A stretch of 16,211 bases of DNA from an uncultured archaeon (GTDB taxonomy: Archaea > Asgardarchaeota > Lokiarchaeia > Sigyniarchaeales > Promethearchaeaceae). The notes beneath the pieces were generated by a model. That model searched no databases. It was not told where the DNA came from and worked only from the letters and a program-made list of their open reading frames with translations. The DNA is taken from positions 1-16,211 of the forward strand of contig CAYRPF010000026.1 in the NCBI GenBank assembly GCA_964426185.1. Reading direction: 5' to 3'. Positions 1 through 14,907 of this stretch are shown here, piece after piece. How positions within the stretch are numbered: the stretch's first letter is position 1; every line of letters starts with the position of its first letter. The position numbers were made by a program, and so were the translations under genes.

Positions 1-9
1 AAAAAAAAG

Positions 10-155
10 ACGCTGCGAAACGAAAAATCCTATTTCTACATCCGAACCATTTATTCGGTAAGATTTTGAACCTGATTACAGCATAATTATACCACAACTT
101 TACTGCTAATCTGTTTGTGCACGGTGTTACTGCTTAGAATGCAAAACCGTTGTAT
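10..155 (-). ncRNA. Candidate structured non-coding element with three hairpins (strand tentative)
   Basis: Inverted repeats at 121-125/146-150, at 74-78/107-111 with inner pairing, and at 42-46/54-58 nested in 24-29/62-67. It is flanked by minus-strand T tracts, and no ORF is evident. Confidence 0.35.
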
Positions 156-159
156 AATG

Positions 160-226
160 AAGAAAAAAGAAATAAAGAATAGAGAAAAGGAAAGAAAGGA
201 AAAAAAAGAATTCCGTTTACCACGGA
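160..226 (-). terminator. Probable selD terminator: small hairpin followed by a long pyrimidine/U tract
   Basis: TCCGT-GGTAA-ACGGA hairpin (226-212), followed on the minus strand by about 50 nt of T/C-rich sequence including T runs. Confidence 0.55.
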
Positions 227-228
227 GG

Positions 229-265
229 CTCAGGAGAAAACTTAAAGTTTACTCTTCTCCATCAC
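229..265 (-). promoter_or_regulatory. Eukaryote-like SECIS element in the selD 3' UTR
   Basis: The minus strand reads GUGAU-GGAGAAGA-GU-AAA-CUUUAAG-UUUUCUCC-UGAG. This gives an RUGA/GA core, an 8-bp helix (253-260 with 233-240) and an unpaired AAA (248-250) 11 nt after GUGA. It lies 44 nt downstream of the stop of a gene with an in-frame UGA. Confidence 0.85.
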
Positions 266-309
266 TGCATTGAAGAACTAAGTTCTAAGCAAAATAGCCG
301 CCAAAAAGC

Positions 310-1362
310 TTAGTAATCTTCAATTTCTCGATAGATGATCTTTTCATCAAATTTCACGCCATTTAAACCCGCTTCGATCACACCTATTTCCATCCACCAA
401 ACATTTGAAGAAGTCATCATTGTGGTGAAATCATCCCAGACATCCAAACCTACCGCAATCAACATCGGTCCGGCGATTTCTGATGATTCACCCTCTGCCA
501 AACCATAGCAAAATAGATCGTCCAACTGTAATGCATAGGAAATCACCGGTAATTGAGTAATACGTGCACCCATATTGGTATTCAACAACATCTCCTCTAA
601 ATGCCCTTTGAAGCCAAAACCGGTAATATCTGTCATTGCGTGAATTCCCTCAAAAAACCGCCCAGAATGAATTATTTCAGGAATCGGTTTATTTGATGTA
701 GTCATTATTTTGGTAGCTATTGAAATGGCACGATCGATCTTACTTGTATCATAGTCCTTCATCCAAGAAGTATCTGCCTTTTGTGCACGGTCAGCAGCCA
801 TTACAGGATGAATTCCCAGTGGTTTGGTTAAAATAAGGTGATCTCCAGTTTTTATGCCGCGTTTCTGGATTAGATGTTCGGTTTGTGCGATGGCATCAAC
901 GCTGCCGCCTAATAATGGCCAAGGATTCTGAATGGTATGTCCTCCTGCAATATCGGAGCCAAGACTCTTCAGCAAATCACGAGTTCCCCGCAACATATCT
1001 TGTGCAAACTTGGGCGGTAAATCAGTAGGTAAGCCCAAGAAACAACTGTAATTTAATATATGAAGTGCATTTAATGCATAGATATCATTGGTTACATTAA
1101 CAGCTGCAATTTTTCCCATGATATAAGGGTCATCATGAATCGGTGTTACAATATCCAGATTTGTTAAAAGACTTTGAGTCTCAGAGATGGCGGTGATGGC
1201 GCAATCTTCTGCGTCTGCATTTAAACCGACTTGATTTAGCAAATTTGAGAGATCTAAGGCAGGAAGTTTACAAGATCATCCATGTAGTTGTGTTTTTTCG
1301 GTCAATCGATAGCCTGTATTGGGTATTTTCTTAAAGATTACGGGCTGTCGTTTAAAACTAAT
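310..1362 (-). CDS. selD: Selenophosphate synthetase (selenide, water dikinase), selenocysteine-containing; about 350 aa with Sec29, probable ATT start
   Basis: The track ORF 310..1242 has SelD motifs (EDCAI, TPIHDDPYIMGKIAAVNVTNDIYA, GGHTIQNPW, LILTKPLG, HAMTDITGFGFKGHLEEM). Manual translation upstream in the same frame gives ISFKRQPVIFKKIPNTGYRLTEKTQLHG-TGA(1276-1278)-SCKLPALDLSNLLNQ, the RLT...G[C/U]xCK catalytic motif. The frame is closed by TAA at 1363-1365. The start codon is inferred: ATT 1360-1362 after the SD, with TTG 1303-1305 as the alternative. Confidence 0.95.
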
Positions 1363-1367
1363 TTAAT

Positions 1368-1375
1368 TCACCTCC
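1368..1375 (-). promoter_or_regulatory. Shine-Dalgarno GGAGGTGA of selD
   Basis: Perfect complement of the canonical 16S 3' tail (UCACCUCC), 5 nt upstream of the in-frame ATT. Confidence 0.8.
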
Positions 1376-1455
1376 ACGTGTTATGTGTAATATTTTTTAT
1401 GATTTAATAAGTATATTGATATAAATGAGAACGATTCAGCAAAAAATCCCCAAAA

Positions 1456-4350
1456 TTATAAAATAATTTCCATTTCTTTCTGTAAAGTAGATAATTTTCC
1501 GAAAGGATTTTGGTAATTGATATTCAGCAGCCACCTCTTCAATTCATACTTTGTTGCTCTTTCTTTTTCTATTTTGAAAGTCCAACGTAAAATACGGACG
1601 GATTCGGGTTCAAATTCTCGAATAACTAATTCTAATGGATCACTCTGTCCAGGTTGAATCTTGAGAAAAGATGGATGCAGGAAAATTAAACTAAAATTGT
1701 TTAGAAAGAATTTTGTTGGATTATGTATTCTTAGATCAAAAATAATCTTATTTCCGATAATTTCCACCTTTCGATGCAGCTTAAGGAAATTTTCTCCCAG
1801 TGCCTTGGTGGGTTGAACCAGAGAATTATTACGAATCTCAGCAATAATTTTATGCTTTTTCAGAAGTTTAAAAACCGAATTTTTCAACTCTTCAATGGGT
1901 ATAGAATAAACACGAGCAAGTTGAAGAAATGAAAGTGGATTCATGTAACTTAAATATTCATTAATTTCTGCCGCAAAGATCTCTTCTTCAATAGAATCTT
2001 GAAATTCATCAAGAAGATTCATTAATTCTAATTTAGTTTTATTCCAATTCATGAAATAATTCTGCAATTCTTCAGAATTTATTCCTGAAAGATCGATTGT
2101 ATCTATTTTTTGGTAAACACTATCAATTTCCTTATTGTATTCTTCTACAGTATTAGAAATATTGTCAAAAGTCATTTTGACCATATTGCGCGCTTCTTTA
2201 AATCGTCGTTTTTTAATTTCTATAAAAATAGGGGTAGTAAGCTTGTCAAAATTTATTTTCATGTCACGAATATTTTGGACGGCTTGCAAAACTATCTTTT
2301 GTAGATTACTATTCAAAAGGTCAAATGTTATCTTTTTCTTTAGTTTATCTTGCTCGGGTGTCGGTGTTTTGATGGATTTTTCGAGATCTTTTATTCGATA
2401 AATTACGGTGGAAAGATATTGTTGGATTTCGATTTTTACATCAACCCAAAACATAGTTATATCTTTCAAGGCTTCTTTAAATTCGAGATTGGTAACCCAT
2501 AATTGCCCGATTTCAAATTCAAATGTATATAAATCTTTCCGAACCTGTGAAATCTTTTCTAATAATAATTCGGACACGGAATTCCCAAAAGATAAGGGAT
2601 CATCTTGGAATTGAGTTTCTATTTGTTCAATTTCTTCATATGTTGCCTTCATTTGTTCAATACGCTTTTTCAATTTTGAGATTTCTTTATTTAATTCATC
2701 TAGATAAGAATCCTTACGTTCTGAAATCATATTAAGTATCATATATTTTACATCAGAGATATTTTCTAAAACTTCTTCCTTGATTTCTTTGAATTCTTGA
2801 ATAGATTCCATAGAAAATCGTTTGAATTCGGACTTATTTAATAATTCTTCCATTTTATTTAATTTTTCGACTATTTTATTACTTTCTTCTTCCATATAGA
2901 CTTCTGCTTTTTGAAATTGATTTTGATTGATCAGTTTTTCGGCGTTTATGCGCAAGTCTTGTACAAATTGATGAAAAATCTCCAAGCTTTGATAAAAATT
3001 TTTTCGCTCTGCTTCAATTTCTTGGATATCTTGGTCAATATCTTCAAACAAAGTGTGAATTTTGGTGAGAGAAGCATCGATTTCATCCAAAACATCTAAA
3101 TCTTTTTCCTCTTTTTTATAATTCTGTAGATTTATAGCCGACCATACTGCTACTGATTTAATTCGGAGAATGTAAGTTAAATCGCCGAGTAACTTTATGA
3201 TTTGTTTTCGTTGGCGCCAATTTTCGGGATCTAAACTTAAATACATTCGGGCAAGTTCTTCTTCAAAAATATCACTCTTCTCTGAATATATTTTAATCAG
3301 ACAATCACTCACAAATTTCCTAAATTTCACCCCTGCATCTACTAATTGATGAAATAATATAGGTAGCATTTCTTTCATGTTTTGAACAACTATAAAAATA
3401 GAAGATTCCGTAATTCCTTCTAATACATCTTGGGAAAGATTATTTTCTTCAATGTACTGACGGAAAAATTTAAGAAGGGCAGGGCCTTGAACCCTACCAA
3501 CTTTAACAAAAGCATCAATGGTTTTAGTTTGAACCATCATGATGGAATCAGAAAACATATCAATTAAACGATGAAATAAAAGGATAAAATCATTAAAGAA
3601 AGAAGAACCAATCTCACCTACAATCCAAATTCCTTTTTCTCGAATTTCCCAGTCACCATCATTTAATAGCAGCAGAAGCATATCCACTAAATCGGCTCCG
3701 GTTAGGTGATGTGCTAAAGCTTTAACTACCTCGGTGGTTAAACCACGAATTTCTTCATCTGGATCTCGAATAAGCTTTATGAAATTCTGCTGAAAGATTT
3801 TTAGAAAATTCTTAGGGAGTTGAGAAGGAGATTTAATAAATTCCAACATACCTTCCAAAGCTTTCGCCCGAACTCGCCAAGAAGGATCTTCAAACATCTT
3901 AGAATATGTCAAATAAAGATCGGGATAATAATCAAAGGATTTCTGTAAAATTTCAGCTAACAATATCACTGCAGATTCACGCACTTTCTTATCTACGTCG
4001 AATAATTTTGATTCACATTTCTCAATAATTTGATCAAATTTCGAAATATCTGTATATCTGAAGATTTTTCGTAGAATTAAAAGAATTTCTTGCCGAATCC
4101 AAAATTCTTTATGATCTAAAAGTATTGGAGCATGCTTCATGGTCAATTCTACAGATTGTGCACTCTTATCACATAGAGCATCATAAACTTCCAAACAAAA
4201 AGCTAAAAAATCTTCATATTCAGATTGTAGCGCATATAAAAGAAAATTATTCGTTCGTTCTAAGGCTAATTCGTATCGGCGACTCTTAATTGCTTCTTGG
4301 ATAGAATGGATAAATTTATTACTGCTATTAGAAATTTCGGGATTGAACAT
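1456..4350 (-). CDS. 964-aa HEAT-repeat / coiled-coil protein with a PCI-like winged helix and a C-terminal beta-sandwich (Ig/appendage-like) domain
   Basis: HEAT signatures (LLDHKEFWIRQ, LFDVDKKVRESA, FEDPSWRVRAKA, IRDPDEEIRG, LNDGDWEIREKG, DPENWRQRK), then a heptad-rich middle. LSFLQLARVYSIPIEELKNSVFKLLKKHKIIAEIRNN resembles the PCI winged helix. The last ~105 aa show alternating beta-strand patterns. Confidence 0.8.
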   Translation of the reverse strand: MFNPEISNSSNKFIHSIQEAIKSRRYELALERTNNFLLYALQSEYEDFLAFCLEVYDALCDKSAQSVELTMKHAPILLDHKEFWIRQEILLILRKIFRYTDISKFDQIIEKCESKLFDVDKKVRESAVILLAEILQKSFDYYPDLYLTYSKMFEDPSWRVRAKALEGMLEFIKSPSQLPKNFLKIFQQNFIKLIRDPDEEIRGLTTEVVKALAHHLTGADLVDMLLLLLNDGDWEIREKGIWIVGEIGSSFFNDFILLFHRLIDMFSDSIMMVQTKTIDAFVKVGRVQGPALLKFFRQYIEENNLSQDVLEGITESSIFIVVQNMKEMLPILFHQLVDAGVKFRKFVSDCLIKIYSEKSDIFEEELARMYLSLDPENWRQRKQIIKLLGDLTYILRIKSVAVWSAINLQNYKKEEKDLDVLDEIDASLTKIHTLFEDIDQDIQEIEAERKNFYQSLEIFHQFVQDLRINAEKLINQNQFQKAEVYMEEESNKIVEKLNKMEELLNKSEFKRFSMESIQEFKEIKEEVLENISDVKYMILNMISERKDSYLDELNKEISKLKKRIEQMKATYEEIEQIETQFQDDPLSFGNSVSELLLEKISQVRKDLYTFEFEIGQLWVTNLEFKEALKDITMFWVDVKIEIQQYLSTVIYRIKDLEKSIKTPTPEQDKLKKKITFDLLNSNLQKIVLQAVQNIRDMKINFDKLTTPIFIEIKKRRFKEARNMVKMTFDNISNTVEEYNKEIDSVYQKIDTIDLSGINSEELQNYFMNWNKTKLELMNLLDEFQDSIEEEIFAAEINEYLSYMNPLSFLQLARVYSIPIEELKNSVFKLLKKHKIIAEIRNNSLVQPTKALGENFLKLHRKVEIIGNKIIFDLRIHNPTKFFLNNFSLIFLHPSFLKIQPGQSDPLELVIREFEPESVRILRWTFKIEKERATKYELKRWLLNINYQNPFGKLSTLQKEMEIIL

Positions 4351-12982: not shown

Positions 12983-12988
12983 AGGTGA
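12983..12988 (+). promoter_or_regulatory. Shine-Dalgarno AGGTGA of the TPR-like gene
   Basis: AGGTGA lies 5 nt upstream of in-frame ATC 12994, the same geometry as at selD. Confidence 0.65.
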
Positions 12989-12993
12989 TATAA

Positions 12994-14907
12994 ATCGAAC
13001 GCCTCTCTTACAAACCCGTTGAAAAATTTCATGAAATCTTTAAATTACTTGGATTTGAAGCCTCTAATCGATATCACAACTATTTCCGTTATAGTATTTT
13101 GACAGAACCAGAAATTTCGATTAGTTTCAGGATAAAACTGCCCATTTTTCTTCCGATTTCAAACCCAATTCCTCTTGAACTTTGTTCTTTTAACATTTCT
13201 TGCTATTTTCGCCCAAGATGGTTGGATTCAAAATTTGAGGAATTTTTGCGAAGTTTTCTAACCAAAACAATGACTTACTACAATTACTTAATTGATGAAT
13301 ACCCTCTAAATCCGTATTTTACGCTGGACAAATTCGAAAATGCTTTAAATTCTGTTTTTAATCAAATTTACGCCTCAAAGTCTGAGATTTCCTATGATGA
13401 TACTATTTCAGATTTTCAAGCATATAAACCTCTCCGGAATCATTTTTTGTTGAAGTTCGATGATTTCTTGCAAATTTCAGAACAATTATCAGAAATATAT
13501 TCATATCTCGCAGAACAAAATTGCTTTGAAATGACTACAAATTTCCCCCCTGAACTTCATTCAAATATTCCATTTAAAAAACAACACTTAGTTGGGGTTT
13601 TCACCAACACCTCACATCAAGAATATCTTCAAGAATTTCTGGTGGGAGAACCTGGGAGTATATCATTTTGTCGCGATATAAAATACAAAAATATATGGTT
13701 TCGGTTTGGAATTGAATCACATGTTCTTTTTCCCTTTTTACAATTTCAACTTCATCAATCTGATTTTCAAATCGATTGGAAAATTCTAATTCAGGATTGG
13801 ATTTCATATGGAAGGGGTTTTTCGCAAGAAATTTTATCTTTTATGAAGGAGGAAATTGAAGTAAATTCTCAATTCTTATTACCTTTTTCAGAACAGAAAT
13901 TTCTCTTGGAAAAAAGTTATTTTGAAGAAAGTTATGGCCTATTTTTTCCGATACTCGTGTTTGAAGGATTAAAATCAATACTACATGCATCTCAGATTAA
14001 TAAAAAACAGGATTTTGAACCCCAAAATTTTCGAGATCTAATCTATCTATGGCGGTTTCAAAGAGCAAAATTTATGTTTTATCAAAAAGATTGGTTAAAC
14101 GCTGAACAATATCTTCTTCCTTTACTAAATGAAATTAAATCAAACCATTATCCCAATTTTTGCATTGAAATATGTTATTCATTGGCTGAAATTTCCGAAA
14201 AATTGAAAAATTACACTCAAGGAATCGAGTATTTGCTTAAAGGTCTTGAATTCGCCAAAAATGGGACAACACCGATATTGAAAATTTTACATTTGCATTT
14301 CTATCTCATGAAATTAGCATTTTATCGAAGCAATGAAAAAGAAAAAGTAAAACACGAAGAAATCCTATTTAGCGTTCTAAATGATTTTCCAAACGGGAAA
14401 GAAAAATCAAAAATGGTTCTGCAAATAGAACTGTGGCATATTCATTGGGATATTGAAGAAGGATGGTTAGACTCTGCCAAAGAACGACTCCTTGGTATAA
14501 AAAACCCAGAAAAATATGGATCAGATTATGAAATAGAATTCAACTTCCTTTGGGGTCAATTTTACAAAAAATCAAATAATTTAGAACAAATGTGGAAAGC
14601 TTATGAAAAGAATTTTAAATTTTCACCTAGGAAAAATTACTTTTTGGGCTTGTCTTACTTAGAATACGTTGCGGAGTACTTTCTTCAGCCCAATTATTCT
14701 TCTTTTCTTTATCGAGGGTTTCAAATGCTCCAAAAAGCTGCAGAATTCTTTGATTACCATAATCCTCGCGATTTACTCAAATTGAGTGAAATCTTGGCTA
14801 AGCTCATTGAGATTTGTTTTCAATTACATAATGATGACCTCGCGATTAAATACCAAAAACAGCTAAGTGCTTGTCATTCTGTAATTTCCTTCTTTATGCA
14901 TAAATAA
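12994..14907 (+). CDS. Hypothetical protein with C-terminal TPR-like helical repeats; probable ATC start (637 aa, versus track start TTG 13099)
   Basis: TPR-like segments (ICYSLAEISEKLKNYTQGIEYLLKGLEF and FNFLWGQFYKKSNNLEQMWKAYEK). The frame is open 35 codons upstream of 13099 (IERLSYKPVEKFHEIFKLLGFEASNRYHNYFRYSI), up to TAA 12991-12993. Confidence 0.75.
   Translation: MERLSYKPVEKFHEIFKLLGFEASNRYHNYFRYSILTEPEISISFRIKLPIFLPISNPIPLELCSFNISCYFRPRWLDSKFEEFLRSFLTKTMTYYNYLIDEYPLNPYFTLDKFENALNSVFNQIYASKSEISYDDTISDFQAYKPLRNHFLLKFDDFLQISEQLSEIYSYLAEQNCFEMTTNFPPELHSNIPFKKQHLVGVFTNTSHQEYLQEFLVGEPGSISFCRDIKYKNIWFRFGIESHVLFPFLQFQLHQSDFQIDWKILIQDWISYGRGFSQEILSFMKEEIEVNSQFLLPFSEQKFLLEKSYFEESYGLFFPILVFEGLKSILHASQINKKQDFEPQNFRDLIYLWRFQRAKFMFYQKDWLNAEQYLLPLLNEIKSNHYPNFCIEICYSLAEISEKLKNYTQGIEYLLKGLEFAKNGTTPILKILHLHFYLMKLAFYRSNEKEKVKHEEILFSVLNDFPNGKEKSKMVLQIELWHIHWDIEEGWLDSAKERLLGIKNPEKYGSDYEIEFNFLWGQFYKKSNNLEQMWKAYEKNFKFSPRKNYFLGLSYLEYVAEYFLQPNYSSFLYRGFQMLQKAAEFFDYHNPRDLLKLSEILAKLIEICFQLHNDDLAIKYQKQLSACHSVISFFMHK

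Follow-up and report, generated by a model that had tools for sequence, protein, structure and literature searches.

The selD gene of an uncultured Loki-type Asgard archaeon of the genus Harpocratesius poses a simple question, namely at which codon its translation begins. The gene lies on the minus strand of a 16,211-nucleotide stretch of DNA, here called the window, and current gene calling opens it at TTG 1242, a choice that removes the catalytic selenocysteine (Sec) loop from the product. The proposal that selD initiates instead at an AUU codon is supported by the Shine-Dalgarno (SD) motif ahead of that codon, by the corresponding alignment column in orthologues and by the absence of a usable canonical start, and we consider it very probable, from the comparisons that follow, that translation starts at AUU 1362-1360.

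The identity of the gene is clear. Its product exceeds the cut-off of the equivalog SelD model TIGR00476 (208.6 bits, cut-off 125) and stays under that of PRK14105 (267 bits, cut-off 291); two AIR-synthase-type domains, AIRS (PF00586) and AIRS_C (PF02769), were detected, and the solved structures matching it include human SPS1, E. coli SelD and Aquifex SelD (E from 1e-31 to 1e-22). The catalytic loop HG-U-SCK aligns with G-C-G-C-K of E. coli SelD and conforms to the G-U/C-x-C-K pattern. An in-frame TGA is present in the best selD match of 39/41 related genomes, which is every genome with a match, and is missing from one weaker paralogue match in these genomes; it occupies the HG-U position in all 31 selD loci inspected, and a tRNA-Sec gene was found in the window's genome. 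As a separate observation, the loop is HG-U-SVK in the SelD of a genome from another genus (L004, G008:C587), a Val standing where all other orthologues have the second Cys of U-x-C-K.

Downstream of the gene, the minimum free energy (MFE) fold of the 3' UTR contains a hairpin at 229-265. The fold z-score of -0.48 corresponds to a stability no better than that of shuffled sequences, and for this reason a SECIS is not claimed from the fold; an Rfam scan of window positions 1-1700 with E up to 1 returned no match, SECIS families included. A distinct SECIS type has been described for the SPS genes of Loki archaea (PMC4989117). The features of the locus are collected in Table 1.

Table 1. Features of the selD locus in window coordinates, with the evidence for each.
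Feature	Position	Strand	Description	Evidence
selD CDS	310..1362	minus	350 codons + TAA stop 312-310	TIGR00476, AIRS/AIRS_C, PDB matches
Sec codon TGA	1276..1278	minus	in HG-U-SCK	in-frame TGA, structure/profile alignment, orthologues
3'-UTR hairpin	229..265	minus	GUGA...UGAG core, 8-bp stem; candidate Loki-type SECIS	MFE fold
Shine-Dalgarno GGAGGTGA	1368..1375	minus	8 nt	perfect complement of the genome's 16S rRNA 3' end
Spacer ATTAA	1363..1367	minus	5 nt	ends in TAA 1365-1363, the in-frame stop upstream of selD
ATT, probable selD initiation codon	1360..1362	minus		column holds ATA/ATC/ATG behind SD in orthologues
N-terminal extension	1312..1359	minus	codons 2-17	open, constant length in genus, residues weakly conserved
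TTG, Leu of RLT	1303..1305	minus	rejected as start	codon not kept in relatives

Read on the minus strand, the selD frame runs from TAA (1365-1363) through ATT (1362-1360) and 27 sense codons to TGA (1278-1276) in ...YRLTEKTQLHG-U-SCK; the codons after the ATT are AGT, TTT, AAA, CGA and CAG, and the segment closes with TAT-CGA-TTG-ACC (YRLT). This reading agrees with what the sequence-only reading had reported of the region: neither ATG nor GTG occurs between the in-frame TAA and the Sec UGA, the sole TTG (1305-1303) encodes the Leu of RLT and has no SD, and a perfect SD, GGAGGTGA at 1375-1368, stands 5 nt ahead of the ATT, all coordinates being correct.

The SD motif is fully complementary to the 16S rRNA 3' end in the window's genome (...GGATCACCTCCT) and occurs just 64 times on both strands of this 3.26-Mb genome (34% GC), so it is not a chance match. 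Its distance from the ATT is also ordinary. Across 1713 confident ATG starts of the same genome, GGTGA mostly ends 4-7 nt ahead of the ATG, and an SD word of at least 5 nt precedes ~15% of genes, compared with ~4% of random 20-mers; at ORF boundaries with an SD of at least 6 nt, the spacer peaks at 4-6 nt for ATG and at 5-6 nt for TTG. The 5-nt spacer of selD falls in the middle of this range. The TAA inside that spacer is not a special signal, since 24/100 ordinary SD+ATG genes of the genome have a TAA there. A GTG (1371-1369) lies in frame inside the SD and cannot open selD, because AAT TAA comes next (the mini-frame GTG-AAT-TAA).

Two further observations concern the DNA upstream. A HEAT-repeat gene of 964 codons (4350..1456) precedes selD in the same frame, and the three in-frame stops between them (1458-1456, 1383-1381 and 1365-1363) show that a read-through fusion of the two is absent. 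A TATA-box-like word, TTTATATC, occupies window positions 1418-1425 of the minus strand, its first base 63 nt ahead of the ATT; were it a working promoter element, the transcript would carry a ~30-nt leader that includes the SD.

The start region was compared across 31 selD loci, comprising 30 genome loci (the window's gene, L001, included) and one metagenome contig (L031), the single further locus that a metagenome scan added. An SD occupies the equivalent place in 31/31 loci, of the type (G/T/A)GAGGTGA or, in a few, GAGGT. A canonical start follows 0-5 nt after it in 26/31 loci (ATG in 24, GTG in L011 and TTG in L013), and the five non-canonical loci carry ATT (the window), ATA (L002, L004 and L031) or ATC (L003). 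The orthologues with ATG or ATH at the same column that had been anticipated are therefore found, and they are found behind the same SD. The correspondence is closest in Ca. Lokiarchaeum ossiferum (L010), where GAGGTGA is followed by 5 nt and an ATG that falls exactly at the column of the ATT, ATA and ATC of L001, L002 and L003. These last three loci are congeners (L002 is Ca. Harpocratesius repetitus, with a SelD 77% identical to that of the window), and in all three of them 29 codons lie between the end of the SD and the Sec codon. In the more distant L004 (54% identity) the sequence reads GAGGTGA-AAA-ATA, the layout that other genomes show with ATG, and in L031 (50% identity) an ATA stands 5 nt behind TGAGGTGA.

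The same alignment bears on the GTG within the SD. It could be argued that the GTG in GGAGGTGA is the ancestral start and that the window copy gained a TAA two codons on, leaving selD to re-initiation after GTG-AAT-TAA or to poor expression. The GTG is indeed in frame and open in L002, L003, L031 and L010, so that in the first three it is usable in principle, and a similar GTG-NNN-TAA-ATH arrangement occurs at window positions 12984-12996. However, L004 has the GTG in another frame, as do most ATG-start orthologues, which marks the SD motif as a ribosome-binding site and not a start; a proper ATG comes after it in L010; L003 and L031 would be left without a usable SD ahead of it; and a ribosome cannot pair with an SD while holding the GTG of that SD in its P site. 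With a spacer TAA as common as reported above, and with selD under the strong purifying selection described below, we judge this course of events to be highly improbable.

A start at TTG 1305-1303 has in its favor that this is the only ATG, GTG or TTG between the stop and the Sec codon, but we find it scarcely credible. No SD lies ahead of it, and the Leu of RLT is encoded by TTA in L002 and L031 and by CTC in L004, so TTG is not conserved as a start in close relatives of the window's gene. Members of the clade retain the Tyr/Phe-Arg directly upstream of this Leu even where its codons differ synonymously. Moreover, the three congeners agree in every residue of YRLTEKTQLHG-U-SCKLPALDL while differing at many synonymous sites, indicating that translation must begin upstream of this stretch.

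What lies upstream, between the ATT and this invariant stretch, behaves differently. The distance from the ATH codon to Y/F-RLT is 17 codons in L001, L002 and L003 alike. The expectation that this KRQ-type segment would be conserved was borne out for its frame, which is open and exactly 17 codons long in the three congeners, and not for its residues, which are poorly conserved: codons 2-17 have pN/pS ~1 between L001 and L002 and are nearly neutral at the protein level. Such a pattern would also be seen if translation began at a near-cognate codon further in (ATC 1338-1336 or ATA 1326-1324) and the first codons formed a 5' leader, and many SelD proteins have ~5 residues before RLT, with profile positions 6-331 aligning to residues 18-333 of the product. 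Nevertheless, a downstream start of this kind is improbable, as no SD lies ahead of either codon, L002 and L003 carry other codons at those places, the conserved element is the SD with an ATH codon 5 nt on, and three species saturated at synonymous sites have all kept the segment free of stops and exactly 17 codons long. In the strict sense a start a few codons below the ATT is still conceivable, the next 16 codons evolving almost neutrally; the AUU itself is the reading that we retain.

The remaining possibility is that the ATT reflects an artefact (position 1360 misassembled or misread) or the decay of selD into a pseudogene. The source genome is a metagenome-assembled genome (MAG) of 155 contigs and 92% completeness, but five assemblies made independently, a circularised genome among them, all have ATH at the column. 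A comparison of the body of selD between the window and Ca. Harpocratesius repetitus gave dN 0.149 and dS 1.84 (dN/dS ~0.08), values by which the gene is under strong purifying selection and functional. A selD pseudogene was rejected on these values together with the intact 350-codon frame and the retained Sec codon, and the tRNA-Sec gene is present as well; artefact or decay is very unlikely.

The SelD tree groups the ATH genes of the four assembled genomes (L001-L004) in one clade with support of 100/98, and L031 adjoins this clade in an unresolved fork, so that at most two changes are needed and a single origin of the ATH state would be compatible with the topology. Judged from this distribution, the non-AUG state of selD is old. 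Most likely, it would have arisen once, from ATG, in the ancestor of the Harpocratesius clade and would then have been kept, with U, A and C replacing one another at its third position. The third base of the start column is T, A or C among the relatives, with no return to G; with few lineages and a G-poor genome, this drift alone is no proof of selection for a weak codon.

Starts of the same kind occur in other genes. The MutL gene of the window's genome (G000:C28:4595, L047) has no canonical start ahead of the conserved IAAGEVIERP motif and reads ATT-AGA-ATT-AAA-TTA behind GAGGTGGA and 5 nt, where both congeners (L048 and L054) have ATG-AAA-AT(A/T)-AAA-TTA at the aligned codons. Within the window itself, a plus-strand gene of 637 codons that runs from 12994 to 14907 begins ATC-GAA-CGC-CTC-TCT-TAC-AAA, the ATC lying 5 nt after AGGTGA (start region 12983-12996), and its orthologue in Ca. 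Harpocratesius repetitus reads ATG-GAG-CGT-TTA-TCA-TAC-AAA (MERLSYKP, compared with (ATC)ERLSYKP). A Pfam search of this gene returned no match; gene callers open it at TTG 13099, with a loss of 35 codons. The GTG-NNN-TAA-ATH arrangement that it shares with selD was considered as a signal and rejected, given the AT-richness of the DNA and the frequency of spacer TAA among SD+ATG genes.

The widest distribution was found for TFE-alpha (PF02002). The loci compared were that of the window's genome (L080, G000:C11:36457, minus strand), L073-L077, L081-L084 and L090-L091. An ATT stands behind the SD in 10 genomes of four genera, including Ca. Lokiarchaeum ossiferum and four genomes of genus g6; a canonical start is absent in 9/10 of these, the other (G006) having an in-frame TTG within the SD. 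Two genomes of a different family in the order carry ATC at a codon that is ATG in their relatives. By this comparison, TFE-alpha is a basal transcription factor with a deeply conserved non-AUG start. In the locus of one congener (L074, G002:C364), the ATT-CC start and the remainder of the gene lie in different frames on the two sides of a run of ~13 A, the explanation being either a frameshift site or a homopolymer error of the assembly.

Two additional genes of the window's genome have conserved N-terminal motifs upstream of any canonical start. A gene for a DUF2229 (CoA-enzyme-activase-associated) protein (G000:C45:14738, L034), with ATC 7 nt after AAGGAGGA, is a probable further AUH case (AUU, AUA or AUC for AUG). 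For MoaA (G000:C1:81360, L033), with ATT 6 nt after GGTGA, the congeners offer no orthologue and the N-termini of its relatives vary, so that its ATT start is only probable. At the level of the genome, ATH accounts for 7/24 of the non-canonical codons at SD-defined ORF boundaries against a codon background of 9.4% (p 0.005), compared with 4/25 in a wrong-spacing control, a difference that is not significant (p 0.22). This count is suggestive at most, and the case for a habit therefore rests on the individually aligned genes.

This recurrence decides how the AUU of selD is best interpreted. The sequence-only reading had suggested that the AUU start and the UGA codon together serve to limit or regulate selD expression, and that suggestion was not upheld: as SD-led AUH starts recur in unrelated genes of the genome and the order, a device specific to selD is not supported, and a habit of the lineage appears to be the simpler reading. 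A joint limitation of SelD by AUU and UGA is conceivable, but is dispensable for explaining the data. An AUU start for the initiation factor aIF1, by analogy with bacterial infC, was likewise looked for and not borne out. Ahead of its zinc-knuckle motif, the aIF1 gene (SUI1; L079, G000:C16:46346-48190, locus positions ~1399-1440) lacks both ATG and GTG; it seems to open at TTG (MPKDLVGICPKC), ~10 nt behind GGAGTGA, which would give the factor that guards start-codon fidelity a weak start of its own.

In the mechanism that we propose, GGAGGUGA in the selD mRNA would pair with the 3' end of the 16S rRNA and so bring the AUU that lies 5 nt further on into the P site. The initiator tRNA would sample triplets locally, as proposed for P. 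abyssi (PMC6237735), and the initiator Met-tRNA would accept AUU with a mismatch at the third base, such that the first residue would be Met; translation would then continue through the Sec-UGA to the stop at 312-310, with a yield presumably lower than that from AUG. ARAGORN found no Met/initiator tRNA in the MAG, with introns allowed too. Non-AUG complexes are reportedly destabilised and disfavoured by aIF1 (PMC6237735), and the repeated AUH starts despite this factor suggest either relaxed stringency in the lineage or selection for low dosage. Extending both ideas, we put forward tentatively, and with rather more doubt than confidence, that initiation in Loki-type Asgard archaea is less stringent at the third base, and that AUU, AUA and AUC would be regular starts where a strong SD precedes them, selectively kept at particular low-dosage genes (TFE-alpha in at least four genera, SelD in its clade, and MutL). 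At selD, the weak start combined with Sec recoding might then hold SelD at a low level, perhaps one responsive to selenium or to initiation factors.

The consequences for annotation are direct. Genes with AUH starts are truncated or missed by gene finders, as selD is when opened at TTG 1242, and for this reason surveys of the Asgard selenoproteome and of N-terminal domains are biased unless ATH behind an SD is allowed. Near-cognate starts are also used by eukaryotes, under the control of eIF1, which lends the AUH question its interest in Asgard archaea.

Among described archaeal systems, the nearest in form is the aEF1A start of P. abyssi, GGAGGUGA-UUUAA-AUG, which has served as model mRNA in experiments on 30S initiation in archaea (PMC6237735). 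The selD sequence, GGAGGUGA-AUUAA-AUU, has the same SD octamer and an AU-rich 5-nt spacer of the same length, and differs in having AUU for AUG, which should make it the weaker start unless fidelity is relaxed in the lineage. A review of archaeal initiation names AUG, GUG and UUG only as start codons (PMC7531240). The closest precedent comes from a methods remark in a 2026 paper, in which an ATT start is proposed for the tubulin gene atubA of an Asgard archaeon (Kariarchaeaceae) (PMC13394414). As with selD, the deposited Asgard protein is too short, and an upstream ATT at a plausible distance from a ribosome-binding site restores the conserved N-terminus; unlike the present case, atubA is a single-gene remark with no comparative test, belongs to another Asgard class and does not encode a selenoprotein. 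Apart from this passing remark, the literature searched contains no such start in Asgard archaea, in keeping with the earlier statement that no description of an AUU start is known for this gene in archaea. The SPS/SelD proteins described from Lokiarchaeota (PMC4989117; PMC11227280) belong to the same family and share the Sec of the N-terminal loop; their 3'-UTR hairpin with a GUGA core has its counterpart here in the candidate SECIS. The words start codon and initiation codon are absent from both of these Asgard selenoprotein papers, and neither describes the unusual start seen in the Harpocratesius clade. In ribosome profiling of H. volcanii, ~30% near-cognate alternative sites were recorded and set aside by the authors.

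In bacteria, AUU start codons are found in E. coli infC (which encodes IF3) and pcnB, and degenerate start triplets in bacteria are reportedly the subject of one published study. The selD start resembles those of infC and pcnB in that a conserved, SD-led gene would use AUU (or, in relatives, another AUH codon) for AUG with a third-base mismatch to the initiator tRNA, and would be expected to be weak. In contrast, IF3 keeps the starts of infC and pcnB in check, and infC regulates itself by this route, whereas selD would depend on the archaeal machinery (aIF1, aIF1A and aIF2), shows no evident feedback loop and has a third base that drifts among U, A and C. SelD has, to our knowledge, no role in initiation, and an infC-like loop specific to selD is disfavored because AUH starts occur in unrelated genes. 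In kind, SD-led AUH initiation is thus known from infC and pcnB; what would be new, and undescribed in the literature searched, is its conserved use in Asgard archaea, selD included.
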